Shown here piece after piece: positions 6,186-58,267 of a stretch of DNA of 64,000 nucleotides. The DNA lies in contig JAHRHZ010000289.1 of NCBI GenBank assembly GCA_024137785.1, positions 8,183,814 through 8,247,813 on the forward strand, in the 5' to 3' direction. The DNA comes from Ginglymostoma cirratum (taxonomy: Eukaryota). The translations under genes were made by a program, and so were the position numbers. The first letter of the stretch is position 1; every line of letters begins with the position of its first letter. The notes beneath the pieces are model-generated. The model saw only the letters and a program-made list of their open reading frames with translations. It made no database searches and had not been told where the DNA came from.

Positions 6186-6223
6186 AACACCTGAAGAAGG
6201 ACAAGGCTCTGAAAGCTTGTGTT
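6186..6223 (+). ncRNA. Minimal type I hammerhead ribozyme motif with decayed stem II
   Basis: AACAC-CTGAAGA-AGGACAAGGCTCT-GAAAGCTT-GTGTT. Core CUGANGA/GAAA, palindromic helix III (AGCU), stem I AACAC/GTGTT. Confidence 0.65.
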
Positions 6224-7307
6224 TTCAACTAAACCTGTAGGACTATAACCTGGTGTCATGTGATTTCTAACATCTGTAGAGACAAGTTAATATCCTGAGT
6301 GTATGGACCTTTAATTTTTAAAGAGCTAAACTATGAATTTATCTTTTCTCTTTACAAATACAGACTGAACAATTGAGCATCAGCAGTATTTCTGTCTTTA
6401 TTCTTCCAATGGGAACTTTGAATTCAAATATGGAAGACTCAAACTGATTTATAGTTCAGGTTATTCCAATTCAGCTTACAGAGTCCATTTCACGTTACAG
6501 ATCCATATTTTTTAATTCCCAACAGAAATGGTTCACAGTCACAGTTTCAAGGTCGAGCTCTGAGGGATAGAGTTTCCATTTCAAGCATATCTGGTGATTC
6601 AAAACCAAATTGCATTCAAAACTGCATCCATTTTAAAAGATGTTTTTATGCATCCAGTTTCCCCATTTAAACATCATAATTGGGCAAGATTTTAAATGTA
6701 AAATTTTACTTTAAAAGTGTGTGGCTTAATATAGTTAAGAGGAGCAGCTTGACAAATTTCAATTAATACAGTTGAAACTGTGTTTATTGCAAAAAAGAAT
6801 CAGTGTCAATGTGCAAACTATTGAGAGTTACTTTTAATGAAGTGCAGAACTATTTTCTAGTTAGATCGAGGTGCAGTTGTATACCCTCATTGTAAGAAAA
6901 ATAATTCTGTTAAAATCTTTGAAAACAGACCAGTTAATTTTGCTGTGCACAAAAATTCCAGATTAAATATTGAAGATTCCGTGAAGGTCTTCAAATTAGT
7001 GCAATTAGCTAAAATTCCTAAAGGACATTGGTCACAATGGGATGTGGCTAGATTTGTGAGCGCGACCAACTTTTAAGAACCAATGTTCTTAAAACTAACA
7101 CAAAAGAATACAGAAACTCAATTTGCATTGAATGTAATTTAGGCTTATAATTCTGGGATATTTTGCCTCAATTACACTGATATCACTGATGGAAAAGTGT
7201 TCTGAAGAAAAACAATAATAGGAGTTCTACAATTTAGAAACTTGGTCAGCAACTGATCCATAACTTTTATGAGGAAAACTCCAGTGGTGGAAAACTTCAG
7301 ATACCAT

Positions 7308-11017: not shown

Positions 11018-11969
11018 TGTTATAAAGCAGATGTTGACCCTCCGAGAACTAAAACCAAACCACTGAAAGAGGAGCACCTCGCTCTATAATCTGTAAAAGG
11101 AATGTGAAAAGTGGTGTAACCTGCCATTCAGCACTTCTAGTGCTAAATAAAGTAAATCCCTGATACTTCAAAGACAAGTAACAATTTATTTATCTAGCTC
11201 TAACAGTGAACAAATTAACTAAACTATTAACAAGCTGAATAAATCCCTGCTAACTGCTAACTATTCCCAAATAAAGCAAGATTCTAATGGTATGCTGTCC
11301 CAATAAATACAAGTCCCACTCTTACAAAAGAGAAGACTTTAGTCTCTTGAAATTACTGCCAGGTTACGTGCCTTCCAGAATGTTCCATGCCTTTTCTGTC
11401 AATTCTTCTGTCAGGAATATTAACTAGTTGTGCCATTGGTACCACTGTTATTCAGACGGCGCTTTCTCTAAGACATAGCGGAGGCTGTGAGAGCTAGCGA
11501 TTCTCTGTGAGAGCTGAGGGCTGTTAGCTCTGGCTGATGGCAGCGAGTTCTGGGGCTTTGTCCAATGGCCTTCTTCTTTTTATACCCTCAATGAAATATC
11601 AATATTTATTACAATAAGATTGATCTTATTTTGTCAAAACCATTAGGCTTAAATTTAATAGGTTTTTGGTATTTAAGTGCCTGGTTCAAATTGACTGGCT
11701 AAATTTAAAAGCCTGTTGTCTTGGTAAACTCCTGCTTGGCCTACTAACTGTATGCCCTTTTGATACAAATGTTTCAATTCAGGTGTTCTCTGTGTACTTG
11801 CAAACTTTTGAGCTGCTGCTTACAGACATCCATTTTAGATCACTAAGCACAGAAAAAGCACTTGGTCCTTTAAAGGCACCACAAAATTCTTTCCCCCCGG
11901 CACTTTACAAACACCAAATTCTAACTTCCTGCCTTCCAGTTCATAAGTACCCTGCCCAGCTTCACAACA
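11018..11969 (-). mobile_element. Solo LTR of the Gmr1-like family
   Basis: TGTTATA...TTCACAACA termini, colinear along its length with the LTRs at 37610-39339 and 45533-46492. Confidence 0.85.
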
Positions 11970-12154
11970 CAACAAGTAAACTGGACACGGAGAATTCTCA
12001 ATATGCAAGTCTCAGAAGGTACCTGGTCTCATCAGCTTGCTGGTTTCTCCACAGCACGTCCAATTTGGACACCAGACAGAAATATCTCAGGCTCACCCAT
12101 GGGCATTGGTCACACACCCCCCACCATCCAAAGACATAAGCATCTGACATGTAA

Positions 12155-12740: not shown

Positions 12741-15700
12741 CGTGTCTAGAGAATTTGAAACCATTACTGACTCTTCAGTGGCGATACCGCCAGCAATATT
12801 TCTGCTCAATGCATCCACGTTTGTTATTTGGCCTTCCGGACAGTGTTCCAACTTGTAATTATACCATTTAAATATTAGAGCCCACTGCTGATTTCAGCCT
12901 GAAGCTATGCTTGTCACTGCCTTGTCCTCCTTAAGTAGACTTAGCATCAGTATAGAGATTGGTGGGATGTCCTGACTCCAAATATGACCACCAAACCTTC
13001 CTTCTCTATTTAGGCGTACTTATTCTCTGCATTAACCAAAGTCCAGGGTGCATAAGCTATTGGGTGTTCCTCAACGTTAGGCCACCTGTGAGCTAATACT
13101 ACCCCATACGGGGAGGCATTTCATGTCAATGCCAGATTTCGTTTGGAATTATAGTGCGCCAACACCTTAGAGGATGTTAACTGTTTTCTTCATTTCTCTG
13201 AAAGCTATGGCCTGCCTATGTGACCATATCCTTTTTTAACAGTTGATGCAAAGGTGCCAGGTTGGAGGCCAGGCTATGTAGGAACTTTCCGTAATAATTC
13301 ACCAGCCCAAGGTAATACTGAAGCTTGGGAACAGATTAGGGAGCAGGGGCCCTTTTGATCCCCCTCTTTATCTTCCAACACGTGTAACCTGGTCTTATCA
13401 ACTCTGGAGTCCAGGAAGGTCACTAGGGGTGCCTGAAACACACATTTTCCCTTCCAAGGCATATACCCAATCAGAGAAAATTTTAAGCATTATGTCCAAA
13501 TTCTCTAAGTGTTCTTTAATGGTCTTCCCTGTTAATAGCATGTCATCCAGATAAATGGCGACCCTGAGATAGACCTTGTAAAATGTTCTCAATTGTCCGC
13601 TGAAAAATTACACAGGCTGATGATACCCCAAATGGCAGTCTCATATACTGGTACAAACCCTTATGGGAATTAATTGTAGCACAATTCTGGGAATCCTTAT
13701 CTAAGCGCGATTGTAATTACAATGGCTCTCATTCAGCTTTGTGAAGAATAGCCCTCCTGCCAATTGATAAAATATAAACCCTCTATGCGATGGATTGGGT
13801 ATTTATCCAGCTGCAAAAAGCAGTTTACTGTTTGTTTAAACTCCTCACAAAGGTGAGCCAACCCGTTGGGCTTCACAATCAAGACAGCCAGTGCTGCCCA
13901 TTCTACAAACTGGACTGGTTTGATGATTCCTTCGCTTTCTAGCCTTCTGATTTCTGCCTTTAAATTTGCCCATAAGGCAAATGGCACTGGGCAGGCATTG
14001 CAGAAACATGGAATTGCTTCCTAAGCAACATGCAAGGTGGCGTTGTCTCCTTTGATAGTCTCTAGGCCTTCCTGAGAAACTGCCAGGTCTTTAACTAGGA
14101 CTTCACTCAGGCAGCCATTTTCTCATAAAAAGATGTTGAGCCAATCTTGGTGAATCTTTCGCAACCAATTTCAGCCCATCAAGCTTGGGCCAGAGCCTTT
14201 TACTACAATCACTGGTAACTGAACCAACTGCTTCTCATAAGTGATCAAAATCAAAGTTTTACCCATAATCTGTAAACGTTCCCCTGTTTCGGTTTTCAGT
14301 CTAGCTAAGGTCTTGCACAAAGATAAGGATTAGAATCCAGAGTGAATTTTGTTAAATAAAAACCGAAAGAACTGCGGATGCTGTAAATTAGGAACAAAAT
14401 CAAGGGTGTAGGCCCAAAACGTCAGCCTTCCTGCTCCTCTGATGCTGCTTGGCCTGCTGTGTTCATCCAGCTCTACACCTTGTTATCTCAGATTCTCCAG
14501 CATCTGCAGTTCCTACTATCTCTGAAGCTTCACCAGCAACTTTGTTTTTGTTCCTGAATTTTGTTAAAGACTGGTCCTGTGATTACTGAAACAGCTGCAC
14601 TGGTCTTGAGCTCTATTAGAACCAGGTGACCATTTAATGAGATGTTTATCTTGATTGGTTCTGATTTGTATGTTGCTAAGAAATTTAACTGTTCAAAATC
14701 AGGTGTACGTGGACTTTCCAGGGTGGGCACTCGCCTGGATACCAGTCTGTGAGATTTCTTACTCCATTTCGGTCTGGGGGAATCTTTTGCTGTCTTGAGT
14801 CTGCTTACTGGCACAAATACAATGGATTGCTGACTTAGATCCTGAAGCAAATTTTAACTGTTTTTCCGAGGCTTGGCTTCATTTTGGAGTTTTGCTGTGG
14901 GCAGACATAGAGTCCCTCTGTTCAGGATATGTCCTGAGTGAAGTAATGCAATTTCCTTCACTCAAGTGATGTTCCCCAATCTCAGTCAGACTGGCAAGGG
15001 TGTCAATCAATACCCTACAACTCATATGTTCCACTTGCCACTTTTTCCAATGATAAAGCCGGTTGTAGTGCCTGTTTGAAGTAAATTTGGTCTTCAGCTA
15101 GTAGGTGCATTTGCGTGGTTTCATCTTTAATCCCACATACCAAACAGTCTGTCAGCATCTCACTAAGGGTTAAATAAAAGTGAAATGCCTCTGCCAGTCG
15201 TCTTAACCTTGTCCAAAATACCAATATGGATTCCCCGGTTTTGGACTGCCAAGTAAAACTGATAGTGCCTCAGAATTGGAGGAGACTTGGTGTCATAATA
15301 TTCCTTAACTAAATCAGTCAACTCTTGAAAGGTTTTAGTGTTGGGTGCCTCAGGGAAAGTTGGGCTCCAAATAACTAAAAAAGCTGTAGGTCCACAAGCT
15401 GTCAGGAGAATTACTCATTCATTGCCTTTCATCTACCCCAATGTCATTTGTCCAGAAAATAATAATGCATTCTTTCCACAAATTGGGTCAGTTTTCCATG
15501 GCAGAATCTAATGAGTCAAGCTTCCCTAATAACAGAATTATGCTAGAAATACTTGCGCTAACTCAAAGATAATTCTTTAGGAGCATGCTTTTCTCTTGTT
15601 GCCACTGAAATAACTCCACAGAGGCTAGTCAACCTTGATTTACACAAGGAGAGTCCTTGACACTTATCCAGCTCTCTCAGAGCAGGCTGTCAGAGCGAAC

Positions 15701-16630: not shown

Positions 16631-17214
16631 AGTGTCAAGGATATTGAACTATTGTGGGCCATCCAGGCAGATGCAATCTGCTCCTGGTATGGAATGAGAC
16701 TAGATGTGGGTGAGAATAGAGGGAGGAAGGTGATGAATGAGGCAGGTTTTTGCAAGGTATGGTGAGAAAACCGGCTGGGCTTCATGGAGAAAAACTCTCC
16801 ATTAAACTCAACAAAACTGACATTTAGTAAAAATACATAAATTTCAATGTAACATTTCAGGTCAACAACTTTTCATCAGACCTAGGAAAAGTGAGAGGCG
16901 TAATTATTTAGTAAGTAGGGAGAAGATGGAGAAAAGAACAGAAGGAAAGGTCTGTAATAATAGGTTACAGTGCGGGAGACATTAATTCAAAGTATCAATG
17001 TCTATCATTTCTGCCATCTTCACCATAATAACACCATTAAACATGTCTTCCCCCCACTTCCAGCATTCTAAAGGGATTGGTCCCTCCCTGATTCCCTTGT
17101 CCACTCCTCAATTGCCCTCCTTCTTCCCATGGTACTTTACCATTAGAACGTAGGTAATGTAATACCTGCCCTTTTGCTTCCTCTTTTATCACTATAGAAG
17201 AGCACTATCAAAAC

Positions 17215-18249
17215 CAGGAACAAAGACAGAAGCTGCTGGAAAAGCTCAGCAGGTCCGGCAACATCTGTGAAGAAAAAACTCAGAGTTAATGCTTCGGGTC
17301 TGGTGACCCTTCCTCAGAACTGATGGTAGCTGGGAAATCATCGGTTTATATGCAGAAAGTAGGGAGGGGGATGGGGAAGGGAGTAAACAATAGGATAGAG
17401 CCCGGTGAGAGAAAAGCATTTGGATAGATAAAGGAGTTGATAACGATCTGGCTAGGAGGGTGAATAGCTGTTAATGGGGACTGTTAGCGACTAACAATGG
17501 GCAGTGTGTAATAGTGGGACATGTGGTGATATGGCCTGGTGTGTGGGGTAGGGAGCTCGGACATGGGAGAGTTTAGGCCCTAAAATTATTGAACTCAATA
17601 TTGGGCCTGGAGGGCTGTATGGTCCCTAAGCAGAAAATGAGGCATTTTTCCTCCAGCTTGTGTTGAGCTTCGCTGCAACACTGCCGCAAGCCAGAGACAG
17701 AGATGTTGGCCAGGGAACAGGGTGGTACATTAAAGTAGCAGGCAACAGGTAGCTCAGGGTATTTTTTGTGAGCAAAATGTAAATGTTCTGCTCTCATTTT
17801 CTGCTTGGGGACCCTGCAGCCCTCCGGACTCAATATTGAGTTCAATAATTTTACGGCCTAAACTGTCCCTTGTCCAAGCCCCCCTATCCCACATGCCATG
17901 CCTTGTTATCGCATAGCCTGCCATTACACCCTACCTATTGTTAGTCACTAACAGTCCCCATTAACAACTATTTACCCTCCTAGCCAGATCGTTATCAACT
18001 CCTTTGTCTATCCAACTGCTCTTCTCTCTCTTCAGACTCTATCCTATCGTTTACTCCCTACCCCTCCCCCTCCCTATTTTCTGCATATAAATTGACATTT
18101 TCCCAGCTACCATCAGTTCTGAGGAAGGGTCACCAGACCCGAAAAGTTAACTCTTAATTTTTTCTTCACAGATGCTGCCGGACCTGCTGAGCTTCCAGCA
18201 ACTTCAGTTTTTGTTTCTGATTTACAGCATCCACAGTTCTTTTGGTTTT
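17215..18249. mobile_element. Fold-back Penelope element, family B: two inverted pLTR/GIY-YIG 3' arms
   Basis: 17215-17641 is the reverse complement of ~17792-18218. Flanked by CACTATCAAAAC / CACAATCAAAAC (17203-17214 / 18250-18261). Minus-strand ORF remnant AEHL...PELPVACYFN...LGTIQP..NIEFNNFR. Confidence 0.85.
18115..18152 (+). ncRNA. Minimal type I hammerhead ribozyme motif, family B
   Basis: AGTT-CTGAGGA-A-GGGTC-ACCA-GACCC-GAAA-AGTT-AACT. Perfect 5-bp stem II and stem I AGTT/AACT; one helix III substitution. Mirror copy at 17284-17321 (-). Confidence 0.7.
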
Positions 18250-19339
18250 CACAATCAAAACTACTCCTTCCAAGTTAAGCAATATACCCTTGTGAGTTCT
18301 ACTTTGCAAAAAACATACACAGATCGGGTGACGTCCTTGTGGAACGCCGCTATTAAGTTTGTTAGCATAACACCAAGACCCAATGGCTGCGATTTTAAAT
18401 CTCGAGTTTGGTCTCACACTGACCCCTCTATCCTGAGCTTGCTGCAGTGTTCCAGTGAAATTCAACATTAACTCGAGGAACAGTGTTTTACCTTTCAATG
18501 AGGCACTTAGCGCCTTCCTGCCTCGATGTATTTTTAAAATTTCAGATTGCACACTCTGCCCATGTTGATTCTTCACAGGTTTTGGTTTTTCAGTTTTTGA
18601 TTCTTCTTTCCTTATGCATCATCAATCCCTTTGACCCTGCATGCCTGAACCTTCTGTTGGTGGATAAGATTCCTAATGAACCTTTCCCAAGACGTTGCTT
18701 ACCCTTCTAAATGTGACACAGTCTGTCCCTTACTTCCTCCATCATCCCACACTCCCAGCCACTGCGACCTAGCATTTCCACTAATCATAATTTACTCTAG
18801 AATGAAGGAAATATATATTTAAATATTAACAGGTATTGTGAGAGCTGCAGTTGGCTTCATTATTCTTCAGACAGTAAATTATTAAACTCACTCATACCAT
18901 TGAGAGAGACTACTAGAAACAAAATATGCCTGAATTAAAACCAGATCAATAGAATGTTCGATACTTGCATTGGATGGTACATGATAGGCGACTAAGAATA
19001 CATTAATTTGTCATTACCACAGGAACTTCAAAAAGGAGTTAAGCAAAGCTGGAAATGTGAATGCTGTGACATTTGAGTAGGATTTAAAATGCACTGTCAT
19101 TAGATGCCTTTCTTCAGATTACCTCAAATAAAAATTGGTATTTAAGCCTATCAGAGTAGGCTTCAAATGGACAACATACTGGATCAAAGGACAAACTCTG
19201 AAGGGCTAAATAATGTAATTATTCATTAAAAACAATATAAGAATATATTTCCCTATAAAATCCATTATTTCATTTTGCCTTCTTTACTTACCCCAATTAA
19301 ATGTTTACATCAAAATCTCGCAGCATGCATTCATTCAGT

Positions 19340-25244: not shown

Positions 25245-26850
25245 CATTCCAAAGAAGATTCATGCTGGACATGAAACCCGAACACTATTTCTCTCTCAAC
25301 AGATGCTGCCAGACCTGCTGAGTTTCTCTAGCACTTTCGGTTTTCGTTTCAGATTTTCAGCATTCAAAATATTTTGCTTTTATTTGAGTTTTTAATTCAC
25401 TGCTCCCTGTCTTCCAGGTATGTCCACCTTGAAGAACTTCTGCTTTTCGCTCCAGTGGGATTTCCATTTTAGCCTTTTGGGCTTGTTCACCTTTATGGCT
25501 TTCTATTTTGCTCATAGTGTTTGATCAAGTGTTATCCAAAACTTACTTTCACAGACCAATCTCTCTCCTCAATGATTGTTGACTAAAGTTCTATCTTTCA
25601 TGTTTCATATCCACTGCAGAGTACAAGTAACTTTGCAACATACAACATTGTTCAGATAGCTGTTCCTGCCACGTCCTGAGATCCATACCCAGTGCCATGC
25701 ACTTCCACGTGCACATTCTCAACCTCTCTGACCATCAGCACCATCTTACACCATCTCAAAGTGGTCCCTGTACCCAGCTCCATTTCATTCTTTATCTCAT
25801 TCGACACTCTAGTTAAAGAATTTTTTTTCCGTTTTCTGGTGTTTAGGAATGTAAGTTCCAAAAAAACTGATTGGTTACGAAGCCCCTGTGGATTTTACTC
25901 TCCTCCCCTTCTCTCCAACTCCATCCCTTCTCCTACTCCCACTCTTTGCAGCGTATTCAACATACCCTCTCACCTTCCACTCTCCAGTGATGAATGATCT
26001 GTGCTCAGCAAGAGTTCTATACTCGTAGACCTAGAAATATAGAATAAAGTATTAAACAGAGAAACTAGGAGCAAGAGTGGGAAATTCAGCATTCATAATG
26101 ATCATAACTGATAACCTAGCTCAATGCAATATTCCTGCTTTCTTCACATTTCCCTTGATTGCCTTAAAATCTGAAAGCTACCTAGCCCTTTCTTGAGTAT
26201 ATTCAGTTAAGTGGCCTTATCTCTTTATGCCCCCACCTTAATGAATTTTGAGCACAACATGACAAATTCTTCTTCCATGGTCTTTGCCTTCATGCCCACT
26301 TCTTTTGTTAAGAATCCTGTCCACATTCCAGGAACTTTTTCACCCAGCTCCAATAATCCCCCTCCACTAGCACCTTTCCCTCTGGCTTTTCTCATGCACT
26401 TGATCTCTTCGTCAAGAACTGATGACATGACATCAACCATTTAATTTCTCTGCTGACCTGTCTCCGTTTGAACTTGCTGCAGGCTATTCTCTTAGGTCTA
26501 ACTCTGAATTTGTTATCAAACCTGCTGATGAGGATGGTGCTGTTGCCATCTGGCCCTTCGCCTCTACTTTGCAGAGACTGAGTGCCAATTTGTGGATACT
26601 TCCTCCTAACTGCCCCTAATCATGACCCCATCAATCAAAGTCAAGTTGTTATTTCCAGGAATGTCACTGACCTCATCTCCTCGAAAGATCTCCTGTCCAC
26701 AGCTTCCCATCTCATAGACCCCAACTGCACACAGCCCACTTCTAACAGTTCCGAAAAACAGTCAAACTGGGCAAGAAACGTTAACTCTGTTTCTCTCCAG
26801 TCTGAGCCAGAGAAACTCTGAGTTTCTCCAGCACTTTTTGTTTTATTTAT
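25245..26850 (+). mobile_element. Old internally deleted Penelope-like element with decayed pLTRs at both ends and a small CR1-tail insert (~26030-26220)
   Basis: pLTR-like sequence at 25245-25385 and 26745-26850 (GAAACGTTAACTCTG). ORF remnants FFFRF and IKPADEDGAVAIW, matching the PLE DKG motif. Confidence 0.7.
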
Positions 26851-29699: not shown

Positions 29700-29825
29700 A
29701 AAAACCAAAAGAACTGCGGATACCGCAGCTCTGAGGAAGGGTCACCGGACCCAAAATGTTAACTCTGTTTTCTCCTTCACACTTGCTGCCAGACCTGCTG
29801 AGCTTTTCCAGCAATTTTGTTTTTG
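29700..29825 (+). mobile_element. Mini-PLE cassette, family B: inverted tail, hammerhead and pLTR
   Basis: CTGAGGAAGGGTCACCGGACCCAAAATGTTAAC (core decayed at CpGs). Target duplication TTCAGT(C/T)TTGCCTTAT at 29684-29699 / 29826-29841. Confidence 0.85.
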
Positions 29826-30139
29826 TTCAGTTTTGCCTTATTATGTCTCGTCTTACTGTGACTTATGTAATGATACAGTGCCAGATTCTCAAGGTGAAGT
29901 TGATCTTATAGTAATTTTTAAATATTAAACATTTCAGGAAATCAAGTGACAATAAACACCCCCAATCAACAAGGGCATCAATCCAAAAGACCTCCCTAAT
30001 GAAATATCTCTACGGATAGAGAAGGCACATGTTCCCATCAGGAGGAATAAGGAAGTCATAACCATAATAAGAAAACTCGAACAAAGTGGCTTATAATTAT
30101 ATTTGTGCTATAATTGAACACACTTGGCTCTCAGTGAAG

Positions 30140-34460: not shown

Positions 34461-36067
34461 TCCTCATAGCTCTTATCAGTTATAGAACATGAAAAGAAAG
34501 TAATAATTTAAAAAGCAGATTTTTTTTTAACTTTACTCCAGCAAAATCAATTCTTCACAGATATCCTGCATTAGAATGCTTAAATATATTATTTTACTTC
34601 CAGCAAGTAAAGTCTTCATATTCCAAATGTGCTATTAACCGTGTCATACCATTACCAGGTATGGCTGTCTCCTGTTACTGTAGATTCTTCTCCCAATGAT
34701 CAGGCAGGCCCTCATTCTGTGAGATCTCAATCTGACAGTTAAAAAGGACTTCTCCATACAAATGCAGTATAGGTCTCTGCTGCATTCAATATTTTGTACC
34801 TTTTTTCACCAGATGGGATGAGTTCACAATATTGATAAACCACACTATCTAACATAGCTTTTTATTTAAAAACACAATACCCATTTATATTTTGCAACCT
34901 TTGTTTAAACCATATCTCGCATCTTTACAAAATGTTGTCCATCTTTCTTTTGCTTTCTCCTGTAATTTTCCATTATCTGAACACCTTATAGTCATTTTCC
35001 CATGAGGAAGAAGTGGAAACTTGCAGGAACACAGTGCTTCCTATTATCTTAATTCATGCCCTTCATGCCTTCATAACTGTAGCACTAGTTTTTCTTGTTA
35101 TCTGTTTCCCCCCAATATTTTGGTCTCTTAACATGGTAAGTTCAGCAAGTGTAATTTTAAAAGACTGACAAACAAGCATTTCTTCATCAGCACTCTTCTA
35201 GCTCCCCAAGACATGTTGATTGAAAGTCAACCTTGAAAAAAAGTTTGAAGTTTTATTTTAATATTCATATTCACTGGGGCCCCTTTCATTTTATCGCCAA
35301 AAACCAATATCACTCATTAAATATCAAATGACAATCAAGAATTTTCAAAGTGTTAACATATTGCTTCTCCTGAGCATCAAGAATGAGCAGTCCCATTGTT
35401 TTAGATGTATTGTGTAGTCAAAGAAAAGGCATTGAATATCGTGCACACTCAATTTTAGATCCTTGTGAAAATCAGCTGTTAAAGTCTAAACAGGGAGAGC
35501 AAGATAGTGTTTCTTTAATCTTTATAGACAGGGTAGAGTTTATTTAATGTTCTTCTCTTGAGAGGTTCTTAACACAGCAGTGACATTTTATACAAGATGA
35601 GTACTTGTTCCATTTCACTAAAAGTCATTCATGAAAATTTATACGGACTTTGACCACGGAGAAGCCTGGTTATTTCTCTTTATGTGTAATATGAAGACAT
35701 TCTATATTTCACATTTCCAAGAGGATTTAGGCTTACAATAATTGTGAAAAGATTATTTATTTGAAGTATTGCAGAAATACCTGAAATGATTTCTTTGCTA
35801 TATGTCATTGGTAAGGTCACCTTGGACATCAGATATTTATTTTTTTGAAAGACTTTGTTTTAAAAGCTACCTGTTTTGCTGTAGATCAGAGCTGTTTCAA
35901 CAGTGACTGGCTTGGAGGGGTGTTTTTTTTTTATTTATCTGGTCTTCAGCCTGCGAGGAAAGGCTGCCCAGCTGAACTCTCCCATTTCTGAAAGGAAAAC
36001 CTTCTTGTTGAGTTTGAGAAAAAGTATTTATTTTTCTGAAAGAGCAAGGCAGGAGCTTCTCAATGAT

Positions 36068-36404
36068 AACAAGCATGGGGCTGGATGAACACAGCAGGTC
36101 AAGCAGCATCATAGGAGCAGGAAAACTTGACGTTTCGGGCCTAAACCCTTCATCAGAAATGGGGGAGGGGAAGAGGGTTCTGAAATAAATAGGGAGAGAG
36201 GGGGAGGTGGATAGAGGAGAGGATAGGTGGAGAGGAGGCAGACAAGTCGAAGAGGCGGGGATGGAGCCAGTAAAGGTGAGTGTAGGTAGGGGGGTAGGGA
36301 GGAGATAGGTCAGTCCAGGGAGGACGGACAGGTCAAGGGGGCGGGATGATGTTAGTAGATAGTATCTCGGATTCTCCAGCATCTACAGTACCTTTTATCT
36401 CTGA
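36068..36404 (-). mobile_element. Mini-PLE cassette, family A pLTR with inverted tail
   Basis: Near-identical to 56411-56717. Inverted tail at 36363-36404. Perfect 14-bp duplication AGCTTCTCAATGAT at 36054-36067 / 36405-36418. Confidence 0.9.
36125..36160 (-). ncRNA. Minimal type I hammerhead ribozyme, intact core
   Basis: Minus strand: ATTT-CTGATGA-A-GGGTTTAGGCCC-GAAACGTC-AAGT. GUC cleavage triplet, ACGU palindrome, stem I AUUU/AAGU. Confidence 0.8.
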
Positions 36405-39518: not shown

Positions 39519-42500
39519 TTAAACTGGCAATAAAGCATTCATGATAATATTTTCACAACCCGCAACATGTATAATCTGTAAAGTAAATGCTTGTAACATG
39601 AGGCTCCAACAAAATAAATTGGTGTTCTTGGCCTTAAATCTTTCCACAAAGGTCAAATGATTGTGATCAGTATACACTATCGTCTCTGATGCATTTGTCT
39701 GCAACAGCAACATTAAAATGTTTTAAGGCCATGACCAAACTCAATAACTTTTTTTCAATGGTTGAATATTTTTTCCAGCGGATATTGAACTTTTTTTGAC
39801 AGATAACCAATTGGCCTTTCAATTCCATAAACATCCTCCTGTAACAACACAGCTTGGACACCTGCATTGCTTGTATTGTTGGCGACTTTGAAGGGTTTCA
39901 AGAAATTTGGTGGGTGGCCAAAACTGGTGCACTGGTTAACACTGCTTTTAAATTCTCAAATGCCTCCTGGCATTGTTCTGTCCACCGAAATTTTGTGTTT
40001 TTTTTAAACAAAACTGTCAGTGGTGCTACTACGCTACTGACATTTGGCACAAATTTCCTGTAGAATCTGCTCAATCCTAAAATTTGTAGCACTTTCTTCT
40101 TCAAGAATGGTCTTGGTAATTCCTTGATGGCCTTAAACTTCATGTTCCTCAGTGTCATCTGTCCATATCCAATGTTGTGCCCTAAAAATGTCACTTTTGC
40201 CTTCACAAATCCTGTTTCTACTAACGTTATGATCAACTTTGCCTTTTGCAGCCTCTCAAAGAGCTCTGCCAAATGCTCCATGTGATCTTTCCATGAGTGG
40301 CTAAAGATCACTAAGTCATCTACGCAGACTACTCAATTAGTCAATCCTGCAACAAATCTGTTCATAAGCCTTTGAAAAGTGGTTGGTGCATTTTTCATTC
40401 CAAAGGGCATTACTCTAAATGGATACACCCTATGTGAGGTTACAAAAGCAGAAACTTCTTTCGTTCGCTCCGACACAGGTACTTGCCAGTAACTGCGAAG
40501 TATTCCAACTTAATGATGTAAGTGGCTTGTCCTACTTTTTCCACACAGTCCTCCAGCCTTGGAATTGGGCATGAGTCAGATTTGGTCACAGCGTTGAGCT
40601 TCTGATAATCTACACAGAATCATTGAGTACCTTCAGGTTTGGGAATCACTATGCTTGGTGAACTCCATTCACTTCAACTCATCTCTATGATGTCTTCTTG
40701 GAGCATCGCTTCCACTTCCTTCTGAACCTGCACTGCTTTGAAAGGATTAACCCTGTTTTTTTCAGAACAGCATTCCCTATATCAAATAAAAACCAAAAGA
40801 ACTGCAGATGCTGTGAATCAGGAACAAAAACAAAGTTGCTGGAAAAGCTCATCAGGTCTGGCAGCACCTGTGAAGGAAAAAACAGAGTTAACATTTCAGG
40901 TCCAGTGACCTTTCCTCAGAACTGTCCTCATAACACTGCAACAAGTCATTCAATTCAGTTCTCTGTTCCTGGAACAGATAGCTCACTGTCATATCCCATT
41001 TCTTAAGGACTTCCTCATTATTCAATTCATTACTCCTCATTATTCTGAGGCACATCAAAATCCAAATCACCTGAATTTGATTCCTCACTCTGGCAATACC
41101 TAATACCCGTTTATCTGGTTTCCTTTCCCTGTCATAGTAAGATTTCAGCATGTTCACATGACATACCCAATAAATTATTTTTCTATCTGGCATCTTTACC
41201 AGATAATTCACCTGACTTAACTTCTCTCAATCTGGTATAGACCACTAAACCTTGCTTTGAAGGGATCTCCTACCATTGGTAACAGAACCAATATCTTATC
41301 CCCCACGGGCAAACATACAAACTTTAGATTTTTTTATCTGCTTCTTACTTCATTAGGAATTATGCCACCTTCAAACATTGTCTAACTAATTCACCTACTC
41401 TGTTTAATCTTTCTCTCACCTCAGATAAATAGTCCAACTGTGAGATCTCTGGCTTCAGGTCTATGGACGTTTCCTTAATTAATTATAAAGGCCCTCTTAC
41501 TTAGTGTCCGAGTATCAATTCAAATGGAATAAACAAAGTCAATTCATCTGTAGCATCTCTAATAGAAAATAATATAAATGGGATACCTTTATCCCAATCA
41601 TTTGGGTAATCCTGGCAAACACCCACGGCATGGGCTTTAGGGTCTGAAGCCACCTTTCCAACTCTCCTTGGGATTCAGGATGGTATGCGCTTGGTTTAAA
41701 GTGCTGAATGCCTAACCTATCCAAGATGTCCTTAAATAGTTTGGCAGTAAAATTGGACCCTTGGTCTGACTGAATCTCCCTGAGAAGTCCATAAATGGAT
41801 AAATAAAGCAAATAACTCCTCCACAACTTTTCTTGCCTTGACATACCATAATGAAATTGCCTCCGGAAACCTGGTAGATCCATCCATTATGGTTAGCTAA
41901 TACTGGTTCCCACTTTTGGTTTTACGGATGGGACCTACACAATCGATTATAACCCACATAAAAGGTTCTTCAATTGCAGGAATTGGCATCAAAGGCATTG
42001 GTTTTATTACTGCCTGTGGCTTTCCTACCATCTGACGCATATGACAGGTATGGCAAAATTCAACCACATCCTTATGTAATACAGGCCAATAAAAATGCCT
42101 CTCTATCTTAGCCTGAGTCTTCCTGACTCCTAGATGACCTACAGATAATTTGTGTGTTACCCACAATATTTCCTGTCTGTATACTGCCAGCAACACAACC
42201 TGGTGAACTTCTGCCCATTTCTCATCCGCATTAACCTGCCAAGGTCTCCTTTTCCACCTTATGATTTTATCCTTAAGGTAATATGATTCTGGAACACGTT
42301 CTGCTTCCTTTTCCGAATAGGTTTTACGATATAAATCCTTTATCATCCTTTTTTTGTTGCAATTCCATTAATCTTTCAGAACTAAACACCTTTGTTTGAT
42401 CCTCTACCTGCTTAAGTTTTTCCTTTACCATTTCATCAAACAGAGTGTCAGCTAACTGGACCTCAACTCCCTCATCTTTCTCTTTTGTTTTCCTTCTTGT

Positions 42501-45505: not shown

Positions 45506-45508
45506 TAA

Positions 45509-45530
45509 ATCCCAGATGACAAGCCCCTAA
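45509..45530 (-). promoter_or_regulatory. Primer-binding site, tRNA-Pro-like
   Basis: Minus strand TAGGGGCTTGTCATCTGGGAT versus canonical TGGGGGCTCGTCCGGGAT, 2-3 nt from the 5' LTR end. Confidence 0.7.
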
Positions 45531-45532
45531 TC

Positions 45533-49400: not shown

Positions 49401-49504
49401 TTACATAGCAGGAAGCTTGCACAAATCTGAGACTTGTTTAGAAAGTCAATGTGGTGGACAGCCAAGGAAAATATGATGGATTCAGAGCTGAATTCATAAA
49501 GTTG

Positions 49505-49585
49505 CTCGCCCGAAACGTCAAGTTTTCCTGCTCCTATGATGCTGCTTGACCTGCTGTGTTCATCCAGCCCCATGCTTGTTATCTA
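49505..49585 (+). mobile_element. Family A pLTR fragment carrying the 3' half of the hammerhead
   Basis: GCCCGAAACGTCAAGTTTTCC...CTTGTTATC, identical to the reverse complement of 36065-36140. Confidence 0.85.
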
Positions 49586-49635
49586 GGAAAAGCTACAGTC
49601 AGCTTATCATGTAATGTGAAAGCAGTAATCTTAAA

Positions 49636-49926: not shown

Positions 49927-51152
49927 AGACAATTTGCTTATTCACACCTAGAAAAGTCCCATACTCACCTGAAAAAGGTGAAACACAAAACAGAGACAAT
50001 GTTTCACAGGGATTTCACCAATGACCAAGCTTAAAAAAAATAAATTGACGTCTGGCGTTGTATCAGTCCCAAAATCAAATGACTCACTTAGAATCTGTGT
50101 GGATCACACCAAATAGAATAATGCAGCAGAGAGATAAAAACACTCAATGGAATTAGTAGATGAAAGTTTTACAAAGCTAGGAAAGAGCACCATTTTCACC
50201 AAACTTGATGCTGAAACCATGGTTTCCGCATGTTTATTTGGATGAAGAATCTAAATTTTTAATATTATTCATGGCACCATTTTGCAGATATTGCTTTTAA
50301 TGTTTATTTTTCAGCGTTACTTGTGCACCAGAAATCTTCAAAAGAATAATGACAGGCATTAGTTGGGATTATCTTCCAAATGACTAGCATTCTAATACAT
50401 GGTTTAACCACAAAGGCACACAACAAAAAGGTGAGAGTAGGACAGGAAATTTTGCAAAAATTAGGTCTTACTTTGAGTGAGAAAGATGACTTTTTACAGC
50501 CTCCAATCAAGTTCCCGGGGCATATTGTTTGTGCAATGGGTATTACAGCAAACCCATAGAACACTAGAGCAATCAAAGAATTCCCAACTCCCTGCAATGT
50601 CACAGAACTGCAGATTGGCAATCCCTTCATGGGAATGGCCATCCAAATGGGAGCTTCTTTTATTAAATCTCACACAGACAAATGAACTGTTGCGACAACT
50701 ACTCAAACCGGATCAGTCACGGCATGTGAATGAAAGTCAGTAGGAGTCTGTGAGGAAGCAAAAGAAAAGCATATTTTATCAAACACCTGAAATAAAGGAT
50801 CACCTGTAAAATCCATAGTCAAGAGAAAAAGAAAACAAAATAAAATCTTCCATTCTGAGGAGGAGAAGAACATGACCCTTAGTTTAGACAAAGAGAAAAT
50901 CCTTATTTGCACGTACTATCCATCCAGATTTCCAAGAAGACAACCTGTGCAAATAGCTGACAATTTATGATGACTTAACAATTCACTGACTGCAAATGAA
51001 AACCTGGAGAGCACAGATCTTCAACTGCTCTGAGGAATCTGATGACATTGATGAGACCACCACAGACACAGAGACTTTGTGAGAGGGGTGTGCAAATTGT
51101 AGGATGATTGAGGGACTAGATATTGGACAGTAGGATGCCCACTGGGAAGCAC

Positions 51153-51317
51153 NNNNNNNNNNNNNNNNNNNNNNNNNNNNNNNNNNNNNNNNNNNNNNNN
51201 NNNNNNNNNNNNNNNNNNNNNNNNNNNNNNNNNNNNNNNNNNNNNNNNNNNNNNNNNNNNNNNNNNNNNNNNNNNNNNNNNNNNNNNNNNNNNNNNNNNN
51301 NNNNNNNNNNNNNNNNN
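51153..51317. other. Assembly gap (165 N)
   Basis: Run of N. Confidence 1.
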
Positions 51318-52832
51318 CTCCAAACTGAGAATCACAACACCAACACCCACCCCTCGCCACCCCACCACCCCCAACGTTCCTGCTACCTCCCACCTTATAT
51401 CTTATCCTGGATATTCTGCAATCTCAATTATCCAGGATTCCACTAGCAGCCACAGGCTTATCCATGGCACTGCTGAGGGCATGAGTTGCCAGCCTCTGAC
51501 TGGCCAGCAGCTCTCACTGTAGGTTGGACTTCAACCTATGGCGAGTCTTCATTCCAGAGGAGGGCCCATCAATTGCATCAGCACTGCCTGTTTGGCCTGT
51601 TTGGTGTGTGGTTTTGGGGCTTTAATTGAAGAGACAGTTTGAGTCTGCCACAGACTCTCGAGCTAACTGCCAAGACCCACAATGCCCCAACAAGATTCCA
51701 CCCATTATTTCTTAAGATCTAACAGAATCTGGGTATTTAAATAGTGGTATATATTTCACACATTATTAGTGAAACCTTTACTAACTTCATTCTGCAATGC
51801 CAACATTAAATAAATCATGCTAAATTTACAATCTAATAGTATCAAGGATCCCTATAGCAATTGGATGACAGGACACATTAAGAATTTGCTCTTTTATGTC
51901 TCGTAACTGGTTTGAACTGAGCCAGGTTAATGGCTCCTTAGAGAAAATCATTTAGGCAGACCTAGTTCTTAGTAGAGATATAGCCATAGCAACAATCACC
52001 CCATAATTCAGCATTATTTGAATTAAATTGGCAGTCTGATACAGCAAAGCTATAAGGATTCAGTTGGATGTATTCACCTGACAGTCGTAATTTGGATGCT
52101 TTGTAATGTTTTATCTTAATATCCAAAGGCAGGAACTAAAAGTGTAAAAAAACTTAGAATGGAAAAAAAACCCAGAAAAGAGAGCATTTTTCATTTTAGC
52201 GTGCACAAAATTCACAAATAAAAGATACGCCTTATTTGGTCATATTCACAAGTATGTTTTTGTCTTGCATAAAAGCAAAATTCTTTTTGTTTCCTTATTT
52301 TATTAGCAGCACTGGTAAAGCATTATAAGCTTGAAGTTTTATAGGGATTCTCAATTCTAGAGCTCCCTCATCACCAGGGACAATGCTATTCTCCCACTGA
52401 AATTTGTCATAAGACCAAGGGAACATTGTGAAGCAGCCGGCTATATAAGCACCCAAACTGCCTTAGATAAAACCTGACGGAATCACACAAATGCATGTTC
52501 AAAGACATGCCTTGACCCTTCTGTGCTGCCACTATCTCCATACAGATGATATTTCTACTTAAGAAAACAATGAACAAAATGTTTATCTTTTTGCCAGCTG
52601 CAACAATATTTTGTCTAACACAGAATGACCAATAATTCGATGCCACCAAGGTTGCTTAAGTAGATTCAGAAGAACAGGGGACAAATGTACCTTAACCCAT
52701 CACTTCCAGCATTGACTTGTGTCAGAGCTTTCAACTAAGTTACTAGATATGTGGACATGCAGCATAGGAAAGAAAGAAAATATAAAGCTATAATAATTAA
52801 CCCAGCATCACACTAATTATAAAGTAGCAGTT

Positions 52833-53124
52833 ATTAGAATCCCTACAGTGTGGAAACAGGCTCTTCGGCCCAACAAGTCCACACTGACCCTTGGAGCATC
52901 CCACCCAGACCCATCCCCCTATAACCCACACACCCCTGAACACCATGGGCAATTTAGCATGTCCAATCCACCTAGCCTGCTCATCTTTGGACTGTGGAAG
53001 AAAACCGGAGCACCCAGAGGAAACCCACGCAGACACGGGGAGAATGTGCAAACTCCGCACAGACAGTCACCTGAGGTTGGAATCGAACCCGGGTCCCTGG
53101 CACTGTGAGGCTGCAGTGCTAACC
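52833..53124 (-). mobile_element. HE1-like V-SINE
   Basis: Homologous to 49636-49926. B-box GGTTCGATTCC and V-domain CTCCCCGTGTCTGCGTGGGTTTCCTCTGGGTGCTCCGG. Confidence 0.9.
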
Positions 53125-55680
53125 TAAAGAAATCAATTGCTCAAAGTGGACAGACATTCTCTATTCCTACAAAGGTGAGTTTCAAGATGTGGACAGGAAC
53201 AAAATTGGAAATGAGGGGCTCAAGGTGGCAAGGAAGCACATTCACCCTTCCAGGCAACCTTGCTGGATATGGCTCGTCATTGAGAAAGGATACCTAACCA
53301 GCAGCGGTGGTAGCAAATAATGCGCAAATAGAAGTTGGTAGAAGGGACTTGAGGTTTCCACCAGGATCCTCCAAGCATCAGAGCGGCTTCCCACTGAATG
53401 ACAAGTCCAGCAAATGGAGGCAGCCTCCTGCCAAAAAAGGGTCAATAGAACCAATGGTTCCATGCATTGTTGAAGGAGCTGTGGTCAATAAAAGCCACAC
53501 CCATGACCCAAACAATTCCTCTAGCGATGTTACGCTGTGGACCAATGGGACTCACTGTTTAAATTTTATGGACTCCCCTAAGGGGCCTTTAATTTCCTCA
53601 GTGAAACTGTTAGCCATCAAAAGTTGACTGAACTTCTGATTTCCAGACTGCTCGGCGGCAATCTCAAACTGACCACCTCTGAAAAAGTGAGAAAGAGGTG
53701 GGGAGGGTTTCAACACTTGTGGGACCCTACTTTGTCTCCTATGGAAGAATATTTTCAAAGCTGGCAAGATTCCACACAGTGACATAGTTACCCACATGAA
53801 GAAAGGAATATGGGGTACAATGGATGCTGATAAGCTGCGCAGAAATGTCACATGACTATAAACATAATCAGAAAAACTGCAGCAGTTGTGTCAGAAAAAC
53901 TTTCTCCGAAGCAAAATCCATCAACTTTCTGAACAACATACTCATCTTTCCCATACACCAACATTAGCTGAACATGATTATCGGAAGATTTTCGACTGTC
54001 AGTTATGCCTTTTCAGTGACGTAAAATTGATGGTATAAATTTGAGACAGCCCCTAATCAGACTTTTCACTACAGGAGTGCACAGCACATATTAGGCATTT
54101 TGCCTGAAACCATTTGGGCTTAACTCTACTTGCAGTGACAATCTAGCGTAATGTTGAGCAATGTTTAAAAGGCATCTGGGTTTTGTAATGATGCTCTTGG
54201 GCGCTTTTCTCATCACTGAAGCAGAATATTGAAAATGTTTGAAGGAAGCAGTTATTTGCTCATATTCTCAAAGCATTTATAATTTACTGACCAAGAGCAG
54301 ACTTGTCAGGTACTTATGGATATACTTCCCAGAGGTTTCCCTGGGCAGGAGCCTGAATTCACAGCTCACAGGAAGTCTTGCTAGTTAAGAACCATTCAAA
54401 TTGTTCATGCAACACAGTCATAATCAGTGCTAGACAGGAAGAGGAGAGAAATATTAGTGAAAAAGTGGAAAAAAAAACATACTTCTTGCAGCAAATGACG
54501 TGCTTCTAATGCAATTCATTGGCTTTTGTTATCTCAAACAATGTTTTTGCTATTGTACACAGCATGTGGGTGCCGCCGCATTTCTTGCCCATTGTTAATT
54601 ATCCTTGAGAAAGTGGTGGGGAGGTGTCTTCTTGAATTGCTACAGTCTTCCTTGTTGGAGAGGTCCATGCCTAGTGCTTGCATGGCACAAATGTTACTAG
54701 CCACTTCTCGACCCAAATCTGAGCATTATCAAAGTTCTCTTCTTTTCTTTCATGTTCATAAATATAAGCAAGTTGTGGAAGAAACATGCTTGCTGAGTAT
54801 GTCACATGGTGGTGGGATGGAACATCAAAGAAGAAATGATATCCTAGTTGAAGAGTTGCATTGTGAGAACAAGAACAGAAAAGCAGGATACAAAATACTG
54901 GTCAAGTCACAGATGTGCTGAAGTTTACAGTAAACAGTGCTGGAGCTGAGATAAAACTGTGAGATCCTTGTTTCAGTGACTATGAAAATGCCTTCTTGAT
55001 GCCAGCATTGGGAGTATTGTTAGGATTTTAAAGATAACACTCCACTCTTGTGTTGATTCTAGCATGATCTTGAAAAGGGTGCCAGAAAATATAGTTCTGG
55101 GAATACCTTCGAACAGGACAGTGATGCTATTATTAAGCAATTAAATGGGTCAAAATTGGATATTACCTTATATGGCACACCATTGTAACAATGAAGATGT
55201 ACAACGAAATACTTTGAAAACAACTCACCACTGTAGCAGATAGAATAATCTGCCTATCTGTTATGAAGATTTGGCTGAGAGATATATTGATGGATTGATC
55301 ACATGATACAGACCATTGTTCACAAGACTCCCAAGTATCCAGTGTCAGTGGGAACATGTACAATCTATTAGTAGTTTAATAAATGCATGCCACATTTAAT
55401 GGGATGTTTGCAATTAATATCTGGGTCAGAATGTTTAGACCAAATGAGGAATTTCATCAACTTCTGCTGTAGCCTCAGTCTAACAGCTATATATTTTTGA
55501 AGTTGCCTGACTTGGCCAATAGCGGTGCTATCAAGCTACTCTTGATAAAGCACTTTGAAGTCTTTTACCCAGAGTACATTCTGTGCCTCATCCACCCTTA
55601 GTGCTTTCTCTAAGTGGTGTGAACGTGGAACAATACTGATTCATCACGCAAGGAAAGGAGATAATCAGTGAAATATTTCA

Positions 55681-55790
55681 AAGAACAAAGAACAAAACAG
55701 CATAGGAACAGGACTTTCAGCCCTTCAAGCCTGTGCTGAAGCATTTCGCCCTTCCATACTAAACCTTTCCTTGTCCACGTTTGATTTGAT
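55681..55790 (-). mobile_element. CR1 3' tail fragment
   Basis: AAGAACAAAGAACAAAACAGCATAGGAACAGG...CAGCCCTTCAAGCCTGTGCTG. Confidence 0.6.
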
Positions 55791-56407
55791 GGAGACTGCA
55801 TGGAGTCCAAATTAAATGTTGAGGACTCCGAAGGCAACTCCCTCCACATTGTATGTTACTGTGTCACAACTTCAGGTGAGTTGGATCTGTTGATGGGACA
55901 AGACTTACGCAGAGCTGGTGATGAATGTGTCTAAGACATTGTCTGAAAGGTATGATTCCATGGTCCTTGTATGGTCCATAGGTCTATGGCTCACCCAATT
56001 TTGGCTCAAGCATCCATATAGAAGTAAAAAGAATTTTGCAGTGTCAACAGGACTGTAATTACTGAGAAGCTGCTGGTGCCTTGGTTGATGCTGGGTGATT
56101 CAGCTGGTTTCATTCCTTTTATCGTACTTTGTAGTCCTTTGATATGACTGACTGACTTGCTCATCATTTCAGATGGCAGTTAACAGCCAACCACATTGCA
56201 ATGTATTTGGAGTCATGTGTAGGCCAAACCAGACGAGGATGGCAGATTTTCTTTCCTTCAAGGGCATTAGTGTTTTTACAACAATTGGCAATGATTTCAC
56301 AACCATGATTAAACTAGTTTTTGGTAAATCCTAATTTTTGTTAATCATTGCAATGAAATGTCACCATTTGCTATGATGGGATTTAAACCCAAGACCTTAG
56401 AGTATTG

Positions 56408-58267
56408 TGAGATAACAAGCGTGGGGCTGGATGAACACAGCAGGTCAAGCAGCATCACAGGAGCAGGAAAACTTGACGTTTCGGGCCGAGACCCTTCATC
56501 AGAAATGGGGGAGGGGAAGAGGGTTCTGAAATAAATAGGGAGAGAGGGGGAGGCGGATAGAGGATGGATAGAGGAAAGGATAGGTGGAGAGGAGGCAGAC
56601 AAGTCGAAGAGGCGGGGATGGAGCCAGTAAAGGTGAGTGTAGGTAGAGGGGTAGGGAGGAGATAGGTCAGTCCAGGGAGGACGGACAGGTCAAGGGGGCG
56701 GGATGATGTTAGTAGATAGGAGATGGGGGTGGGGCTTGAGGTGGGAGGAGGGGATAGGTGAGAGGAAAAACAGGTTAGGGAGGTGGAGATGAGCTGGGCT
56801 GGTTTTGGGATGCGGTTGGGGGAGGGGAGATTTTGAAGCTTGTGAAATCCACATTGATACCATTGGGCTGCAGGGTTCCCAGGCTGAATATGATTTGCTG
56901 TTCCTGCAGCCTTCGGGTGGCATCACTGTGGCATTGCAGGAGGCCCAGGATGGAGATGTCGTCTGAGGAATGGGAGGGGGAGTTGAAATGGTTCACGACT
57001 GGGAGGTGCAGTTGTTTGTTGCGAACTGAGCACAGGTGTTCTGCAAAGCAGTCCCCAAGCCTCCGCTTGGTTTCCCCGATGTAGAGGAAGCCACAATGGG
57101 TACAGCGGATGCAGTATACCACATTGGCAGATGTGCAGGTGAACATCTGCCTGATGTGGAAAGTCTTCTTGGGGCCTGGGATTGGGGTGAGGGAGGAGGT
57201 GTGGGGGCAGGTGTAGCACTTCCTGCGGTTACAAGGAAAAGTGCCGGGTGTGGTGGGGCTGGAGGGGTGTGTGGAGCGGACAAGGGAGTCGCGGAGGGAG
57301 TGGTCCCTCCGGAAGGCAGATAAGGGTGGGGAGGGAAAAATGTCTTTGGTGGTGGGGTCTGATTGCAGATGGCGAAGTGTCAGAGGATGATGTGTTGGAT
57401 CCGGAGGTTGGTGGGGTGGTACGTGAGGACGAGGGGGATTCTGTTTTGGTTATTATTGCGGGGACGGGGCGTGAGGGATGTGTTCCGGGAAATGCGGGAG
57501 ACACGGTCGAGGGCGTTCTCGACCACTGTTGGGGGGAAGTTGCGGAACTTGAAGAATGAGGACATTTGAGATGTGCGGGATTGGAATGTCTCATCCTGGG
57601 AGCAGATGCGGTGGAGGCGAAGGAATTGGGAATAGGGGATGGCATTTTTGCAGGAAGGAGGATGGGAGGAGGTGTATTCCAGGTAGCTGTGGAAGTCAGT
57701 GGGCTTGAAATGGACATCGGTTTCGAGGTGGTTACCCGAGATGGAGACAGAGAGGTCCAGGAAGGAGAGAGAAGTGTTGGAGATGGTCCAGGTGAACTTC
57801 AGGTTGGGGTGGAAGGTGTTGGTGAAGTGGATGAACTGTTCGAGCCCCTCGTGGGCGCACGAGGCGGTGCCGATGCAGTCATCAATGTAATGGAGGAAGA
57901 GGTGGGGTTTAGGGCCAGTGTAGGTACGGAAGAGGGATTGTTCCACGTAATCTACAAAGAGGCAGGCATAGCTTGGGCCCGTGCGGGTACCCATGGCCAA
58001 CCCCTTTATTTGTCGTAAGTGGGAGGAATTGAAAGAGAAGATGTTGAGGGTGAGGACGAGTTCGGCTAAGCGGATGAGGGTGTCGGTGGAGGGACTCCCA
58101 CAGCTACCTGGAATACACCTCCTCCCACCCACCTTCCTGCAAAAATGCCATCCCCTATTCCCAATTCCTTCGCCTCCACCGCATCTGCTCCCAGGATGAG
58201 ACATTCCAATCCCGCACATCTCAAATGTCCTCATTCTTCAAGTTCCGCAACTTTTATCTCTGATACA
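56408..58267 (-). mobile_element. Young 5'-truncated Penelope-like element, family A (RT, GIY-YIG, pLTR)
   Basis: RT GLAMGTRTGPSYACLF, HYIDD, HPNLKFT; GIY-YIG NVVYCIRCTHCGFLYIGETKRRL. Perfect TSD ACCTTAGAGTATTG at 56394-56407 / 58268-58281. Confidence 0.95.
56471..56506 (-). ncRNA. Minimal type I hammerhead ribozyme, intact core
   Basis: Minus strand ATTT-CTGATGA-A-GGGT-CTCG-GCCC-GAAACGTC-AAGT. Confidence 0.8.

Follow-up and report, generated by a model that had tools for sequence, protein, structure and literature searches.

The 64,000-nucleotide window analyzed here (Ginglymostoma cirratum, contig JAHRHZ010000289.1, positions 8,183,814 to 8,247,813 of the forward strand) carries a series of hammerhead ribozyme motifs that an earlier note had ascribed to the pseudo-long terminal repeats (pLTRs) of several families of Penelope-like elements (PLEs). 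This identity was confirmed: they are minimal type I hammerheads in pLTR ends of Neptune-type PLEs, and the class of PLE hammerheads is already known. All nine cores and both half copies (14402 and 49508) were found where that note had placed them, its minus-strand numbers being the 3′ ends of the cores, for which C3 lies at 16879, 17317, 36156, 40919, and 56502. Throughout, C3 of CUGANGA is numbered 0, and negative positions are upstream of the core. Family searches recovered 13 pLTR ends in the window, of which three (3-75, 25249-25343, and 36910-36983) were missing from the earlier list. The features are as follows.

56471..56506, minus strand: family A hammerhead of the minimal type I, intact, with stem I AUUU/AAGU and the helix III palindrome ACGU; C3 is at 56502, and the cut is predicted after 56475.
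56531..56537, minus strand: TATA-like TATTTAT, a predicted core promoter 31 nt before an initiator-like A at 56506.
56410..58262, minus strand: 5′-truncated Neptune-type PLE insertion, its 3′ pLTR bearing the hammerhead and tail, with a 14-bp target duplication; it includes an inverted 5′ piece (58093-58253), the reverse transcriptase (RT) part (57380-58099), and a CX4CxxC linker with a GIY-YIG/CCHH endonuclease (56775-57449).
36125..36160, minus strand: intact minimal hammerhead of family A (C3 at 36156).
36066..36402, minus strand: solo family A pLTR end with ca. 200 nt of 3′ untranslated region (UTR), the hammerhead and tail, an inverted tail of 35 nt at the 5′ end, and a 14-bp target duplication.
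17208..18253, no single strand: one family B insertion of two inverted pLTRs, their hammerheads both damaged (C3 at 17317 on the minus and at 18119 on the plus strand), with C-terminal remnants of GIY-YIG inside (17579-17791, minus, and 17790-17852, plus) and TATAAA at 18086-18091.
6152..6272, plus strand: family C pLTR end with TATAAA at 6152-6157 and a hammerhead at 6186-6223, whose core and AGCU palindrome are intact and whose stem II is weakened to 3 bp (stem I AACAC/GUGUU).
4871..5368, plus strand: older PLE with a degenerate GIY-YIG region (28% identity by tblastn, E 8e-08), probably the body belonging to the hammerhead at 6191, judging by place and strand.
29726..29828, plus strand: short family B end starting ca. 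5 nt before the core, with G12>A at a CpG, predicted dead.
40773..40927, minus strand: short family B end (C3 at 40919) starting ca. 5 nt before the core, with both CpGs decayed.
26746..26846, plus strand: old family B-like end with a broken core.
25249..25343, plus strand: decayed family B-like tail, found by the family searches.
14401..14500, plus strand: family E end truncated inside the core, without CUGANGA and with G12>A.
49508..49594, plus strand: family A end truncated inside stem II.
16851..16879, minus strand: doubtful hammerhead-like core with mismatched stems and no tail homology found.

In the insertion at 56410..58262, the hammerhead lies ca. 270 nt past the stop of a GIY-YIG frame that is itself downstream of the RT part. 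The Pfam match of this frame to GIY-YIG was weaker than the Pfam cutoff (E 0.0016), the RT frame had no Pfam match, and a PDB search with the RT part gave nothing useful; at locus L186, an 858-codon frame (134 codons unread) joins the RT and GIY-YIG regions. The window endonuclease contains the residues CNRRKCYTC, CTHC before YIG, and two later His. A CX2-5CxxC linker and a CCHH motif are described as features of Neptune-type endonuclease-bearing PLEs, the linker being present also in Nematis (PMC8557442), and by these features, rather than by RT phylogeny, the window element is classed from its predicted protein as an endonuclease-bearing (EN+) PLE of the Neptune type. GIY-YIG matches upstream of the motifs link families A, B, and C in the window to PLEs, and the same element protein matched the GIY-YIG remnants in 17208-18253 (family B) and 4871-5368 (family C). 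A pLTR, an inverted 5′ copy, a tail of 30 to 40 bp, and a target duplication, all features of EN+ PLEs, were found, and both intact family A insertions (36156 and 56502) carried the 14-bp target duplication together with an inverted tail. An open reading frame (ORF) starting inside the ribozyme, as in the Anolis carolinensis element PAc, was rejected, the ATG of the family A core reaching a stop after 15 codons.

The motifs have the paired-stem CUGANGA...GAAA...UH core, intact in the family majority, as well as the extra unpaired base before stem II and G10.1-C11.1 (a GC pair in 10 of 14 aligned rows). Helix III is a palindrome without a loop, ACGU in families A, E, B, and F and AGCU in family C, and this is the likely reason why the Rfam scan that the earlier note had proposed gave no match at E≤5. 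A strict descriptor (CUGANGA, stem II of ≥3 bp, GAAA, palindromic helix III, UH, and stem I of ≥3 bp) was passed by three of the nine window cores (6191, 36156, and 56502). It gave 21 matches in 864 kb (the window plus the genome sample) and none in each of 10 dinucleotide shuffles or in the reversed sequence, so the window motifs are not due to chance. Damage elsewhere consisted of A15.1>G and loss of the palindrome at 17317, C15.2>A at 18119, G12>A at 29731, a helix III of AUGU at 40919, and U4>C plus G8>A at 26750, and the two half copies lacked CUGANGA. The core at 16879 is of doubtful identity because both its stem I and its stem II contain mismatches and it lies outside the 13 family-search matches.

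Across the 4.36-Gb genome, a family-free pattern of the intact core had at least 112,123 matches, compared with 121 for a reversed-pattern control (genome-wide motif counts are lower bounds), which bears out the very large dispersed population that had been proposed from the window. From this count, 1.6 motifs are expected in 64 kb; the window, with 2, is typical. Exact family A cores numbered 58,114 intact and 75,957 when CpG changes were allowed, those of family B 6,040 and 21,473, and those of family E 16,392 intact, while a tight pattern for family C had 39 matches. In a sample of 150 stretches of 10 kb from 9 contigs (1.5 Mb, of which 1.07 Mb was readable), we found 208 unique A, E, and B ends, a density of ca. 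200 per Mb that is like that of the window and extrapolates to roughly 0.6 to 0.85 million pLTR ends. Tail 3′ ends in the sample clustered near +93 and +127, in agreement with the pair of RT start sites bounding the tail of the anole element (PMC11167929). Fifty-six of the 208 copies were head to head, and 3,340 head-to-head palindromes genome-wide had both family A cores whole; an intact core with its palindrome was present in 34 of 86 A/E copies and 10 of 52 B copies of the sample. Further families were also seen. L286 (G000:C1:968274-968736, an inverted pair with an A-rich box ca. 45 nt before the core) and L155:1-54 have a stem I of 5 to 6 bp, a stem II of up to 7 bp, and an ACGU palindrome, and the family of L287 to L290 has stem II GAGUC/GACUC and a stem I ending in AGCU, its single long copy carrying TATAAA at -34 and its three short copies starting within ca. 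5 nt of the core.

Among the 183 usable sample copies with readable 5′ flanks (208 minus 25 dropped for N or stretch ends), 72 began at -6 to -1, compared with 5 at -26 to -7. These 72 comprised 35 head-to-head, 36 solo, and 1 direct copy; the solo copies were 70 to 136 nt long, and 10 had a target duplication (control, 0/36) and 26 did not. The upstream flanks of the solo copies were unlike each other (3 of 630 pairs scored 25 or more). Genome-wide, family A broke at -4 in 16,347 cases, at -5 in 6,424, and at -6 in 4,619 (27,390 in total), with 39,932 copies continuing to -10 and 1,388 breaks at an internal control base; the ratios are approximate, since the break and read-through patterns differ in length. 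In family C, 19 of 20 fetched copies started between -9 and -3 (the pattern itself forced -3 to -1), several of them as near-palindromes centered at -8. The word at the start varied by family (ATTT, AGTT, or ACTTCAC).

Long copies, which continue past this point, carried a TATA-like box at -35 in A/E (29 of 33), at -33 in B (8 of 13), and at -37/-39 in C (3 of 3). An initiator-like A lies 29 to 32 nt below the box, at -4 in A/E, at -4 in B, and at -7 in C. A fourth T after the start A was found in 27 long copies compared with at least 3,999 junction copies, and being nearly confined to junctions, it arises at the end. A G preceded the start junction in 54, 44, 45, and 51 of 100 matches listed, compared with 22 of 100 at the internal control (hand counts of the 100 matches listed first, a non-random set), which is suggestive of a cap-G signature; G from cap copying has been described for L1 (PMC11702581). 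Three other sources of the shared start were rejected: a splice acceptor upstream of helix I, because family A lacks an AG at that place and the upstream flanks are dissimilar; an alignment artifact from a subfamily with a different 3′ UTR, also ruled out by the dissimilar flanks; and stalling at a C-rich run, which fits A/E only and neither B nor C.

Together, these data lead us to a reading to which we assign a probability of roughly 70%: the motifs are PLE-end hammerheads, mostly broken and likely inert relics made from uncut RNA, and many are likely run-off copies of the first 100 to 135 bases of the transcript. The short copies starting 1 to 6 nt before the core would then likely be run-off cDNAs of the 5′ end of the element RNA. 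Several observations weigh against this view. The G:A ratio at junctions did not differ significantly from that at the internal control (p 0.12), and in the local sample a G stood before 14 of 58 junctions at the start site and before 21 of 67 internal junctions, so the controls do not show the cap-G signal to be specific. At the commonest family A junction, position -4 was T rather than A (ca. 81 of 100 matches listed), the box of family A is a variant of TATA, and local-alignment ends are imprecise for old copies. Penelope of Drosophila virilis is described as having a TATA-less promoter and an intron before the hammerhead (PMC2377424 and PMC4209133), so a TATA/initiator layout is not general. 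Lastly, since no element whose hammerhead and tail run into an ORF start was recovered, the layout of the full transcript is inferred.

The same relics could bear a shared start that is not an RNA 5′ end, if the RT stalled at a protein-bound ribozyme, or if the endonuclease cut, or the cDNA annealed, at a short A-T-rich word before the core. The anole enzyme favors ATT within the pLTR of its own element (PMC11167929), and the word in family A is ATTT, which together with the predominance of T at -4, the G enrichment that is not cleanly specific to the start, and the 35 of 72 start copies that are fold-back junctions, with a seam shaped by microhomology, speaks for this alternative. Yet the word differs among families while the pile of ends tracks the TATA spacing, nearby T-runs (+28 to +35 and -35 to -25) have no comparable pile, the ends lie after a structure already copied rather than before it, and the extra T occurs only at junctions. 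We regard stalling or word choice as an unlikely source of the shared start.

Run-off from an RNA 5′ end, which we prefer, would proceed as follows. A TATA and initiator promoter in the pLTR would start the RNA at the A opening helix I, predicted 4 nt before C3 in families A, E, and B and 7 nt in C, making the ribozyme the first fold of the transcript. The RT would begin within the tail, where that of the anole Poseidon element started at two sites in vitro (PMC11167929). From the 3′ pLTR of a long RNA it would produce long copies, while at the RNA 5′ end it would run off after ca. 100 to 135 nt and leave short ones; priming from both nicked strands would join two cDNAs head to head. Selection would maintain the ribozyme in active elements only; its folding would depend on the element protein or on a second copy, and it would cut 32 nt from the cap. 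In inserted copies its loss would be neutral and most rapid at two CpGs, among whose bases are G12 and the helix III palindrome.

The conservation of the motifs fits this scheme between families and within them. The claim that stem sequences differ between families yet keep pairing held between families: all 8 stem pairs changed on both sides, none of 500 shuffles was as good, and true stems were 93% paired, compared with 19 to 46% in slid-alignment controls (an alignment of 14 related, hand-picked rows). This argues that active elements kept the fold. It failed for GGGUC/GACCC versus AGGUC/GACCU, where the second form is no separate family and instead reflects chance double decay of family B copies, since it is rarer (169 copies) than the unpaired single change AGGUC/GACCC (277) and carries family B loops. 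The A10.1-U11.1 pair of the end at 40773..40927 is likewise a chance double change. Once inserted, the core decays like neutral DNA. In copies spanning the core, non-CpG core bases had changed in 7 of 389 (1.8%) for A, 10 of 364 (2.7%) for E, and 20 of 413 (4.8%) for B, and tail bases, with polymorphic columns dropped, in 38 of 1420 (2.7%), 51 of 1401 (3.6%), and 80 of 1262 (6.3%), respectively (p 0.46, 0.52, and 0.28). The four CpG core bases had changed in 26 of 156 (17%), 36 of 148 (24%), and 52 of 160 (33%) (p<1e-9), so that the two CpGs decay 7 to 9 times faster. They include the palindrome and G12, the hammerhead general base (PMC6155905). A test for a host-domesticated hammerhead was negative within this genome, the core being no better kept than the tail after insertion.

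This decay bears directly on the suggestion of the earlier note that the intact copies could cut host pre-mRNA or pair in trans. An active ribozyme population that cuts host transcripts singly, as cis pairs, or in trans we consider very improbable in spite of the number of intact motifs, most with the common ACGU palindrome. Copies starting at the cut site were no more frequent than expected (7 of 183 at +26 to +31, ca. 7.6 from the rate over 0 to +45), and in family A genome-wide, 821 breaks at this site, point changes included, compare with 47,211 copies reading through. Provided that the RT begins within the tail, every copy having both core and tail came from RNA uncut at that motif. The predicted monomer fold (-9.3 kcal/mol) pairs UGAUG with CGUCA, that is, the core strands with each other. 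As for pairs, the two intact family A copies of the window lie on one strand, 20.3 kb apart, and 21 of 208 sampled copies had a same-strand neighbor within 500 nt, while a head-to-head arrangement puts the two motifs on opposite strands. One natural direct tandem was seen (L190, G000:C1:1770203-1770936), where 94 nt separate two intact motifs of family A and an inverted tandem lies alongside; it is a candidate of the best kind for real cis cleavage. The active dimer fold of such a tandem lies ca. 23 kcal/mol above the best fold, a rough figure given that models undervalue hammerhead cores.

In published assays, minimal hammerhead monomers of PLEs did not cleave and dimers did so weakly (PMC4209133), and one of nine Xenopus dimers cut well in vitro, the other eight being inactive (bioRxiv 10.64898/2026.07.22.740005). 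The anole ribozyme cuts once its protein is added, although it is unneeded for insertion and no RNA reads were described as ending at the site (PMC11167929). Contigs from two probable RNA runs contained family sequence, mainly matching the repeats of 26000-38900; such contigs show neither ends nor strand, and for 44001-64000 they gave no evidence for or against transcription. A search for host exons in the window, which took the 150 longest of its 296 frames outside repeats, yielded a single Pfam match below threshold and no exon, though short exons may escape this search. Cutting of host pre-mRNA by the intact copies is unsupported. Finally, a self-propagating SINE-like (short interspersed element) or retrozyme family with its own life cycle is hardly credible, for although the solo lengths and the 10 of 36 target duplications, and the derivation of non-LTR retrozymes from pLTRs (bioRxiv 10.64898/2026.07.22.740005), would suit it, the short copies have lost the upstream TATA-like box and match long copies of the same subfamilies in sequence, and direct tandems are rare, with no tandem array in the window.

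With PLE relics as the preferred reading, a more specific proposal can be made, to which we would give somewhat less than even odds. In Neptune-type shark elements, the ribozyme would be the first structure to form in a capped RNA driven by TATA and initiator, with the RT starting ca. 100 to 135 nt downstream of it. The hundreds of thousands of short copies would then be the Penelope counterpart of retroviral strong-stop DNA and would locate the transcription start to the base. Cutting with the help of protein, 32 nt from the cap, would serve as a switch that withdraws an RNA from translation or from the template pool, and CpG decay would disarm the inserted copies. A base-precise start common to unrelated families gives a direct prediction for cap analysis of gene expression (CAGE) and for the existing in vitro PLE assay. 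The more than 100,000 intact motifs exceed the published counts compared and, given gene annotation, make an intron-orientation test of host cost easy.

Other observations concern the surroundings of the motifs. A degenerate CA/CT-rich microsatellite (5430-5780) lies between the endonuclease remnant at 4871-5368 and the motif at 6191. Short PLE-like protein remnants at 17015-17110 and 18394-18507 flank the family B inverted pair, which suggests insertion into an older element. The family B tail (window 18145-18175, plus strand, and family B copies generally) has TTAAC at the cut site, a pyrimidine run, and CAG; it resembles a 3′ splice site, with TTAAC as branch-point-like, and sense intronic copies could act as cryptic acceptors, while the tails of families A and E have no AG. 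Broken LTR-retroelement pol remnants occupy 39898-42367 (minus strand; Pfam matches to RT, RNase H, and an integrase zinc finger). A high-copy repeat at 19491-20245, 24226-25134, and 38199-38972 has frames without a Pfam match that resemble the 3′ end of a CR1-type LINE (long interspersed element) RT. One dispersed repeat occurs in several copies of 65 to 85% identity (11038-11970, 37632-39340, and 44087-46493), and inverted arms of 241 nt, 91% complementary and 693 nt apart, lie at 15455-16629, unlinked to the hammerhead families.

In the literature searched, which left out most subscription journals, no publication on shark PLE hammerheads or on a shared start was found. The shark motifs fit the minimal hammerheads of PMC4209133, with which they share the core, the extra base between 9 and 10.1, G10.1-C11.1, a helix I of 4 to 5 bp, the palindromic 15.2-16.2 without a loop, several families per genome, and mostly single copies, often in opposite-strand pairs; a difference is helix II, of 4 to 5 bp here. 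According to that report, the genomes of fish, coelacanth, and frog each hold thousands of copies, most of them single, and the at least 112,123 motifs found here compare with ca. 4,000 in coelacanth and 9,000 in Xenopus, counted by different search rules. The fixed 5′ end, promoter spacing, and CpG decay seen here are not among the features reported in its sections compared here. Non-LTR retrozymes similarly carry type I hammerheads from PLE pLTRs, with many monomers, but are direct tandem arrays with a hammerhead per unit, of which the window has none (bioRxiv 10.64898/2026.07.22.740005). PAc, a Poseidon of A. carolinensis (Frangieh 2024, PMC11167929), resembles the shark elements in its pLTR hammerhead followed by a tail, two end points ca. 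35 nt apart, insertions from uncut RNA, and priming on both strands. It is a member of the Poseidon clade with an ORF that begins at stem II, whereas the linker zinc finger here is of the Neptune type, and run-off copies ending at helix I, proposed here, are not described in its main text. EN+ PLEs with inverted pLTRs (Arkhipova 2013, PMC3846280; Craig 2021, PMC8557442) share the 5′ truncation, inverted pLTR, one-sided tail, head-to-head palindromes, and target duplications, and the rotifer pLTR, like those of the shark, has a putative TATA box and an initiator-like word (PMC3846280). The palindromes were read there as self-priming on an antisense template (PMC3846280 and PMC8557442), whereas in the shark the seams cluster at one base beside the ribozyme.

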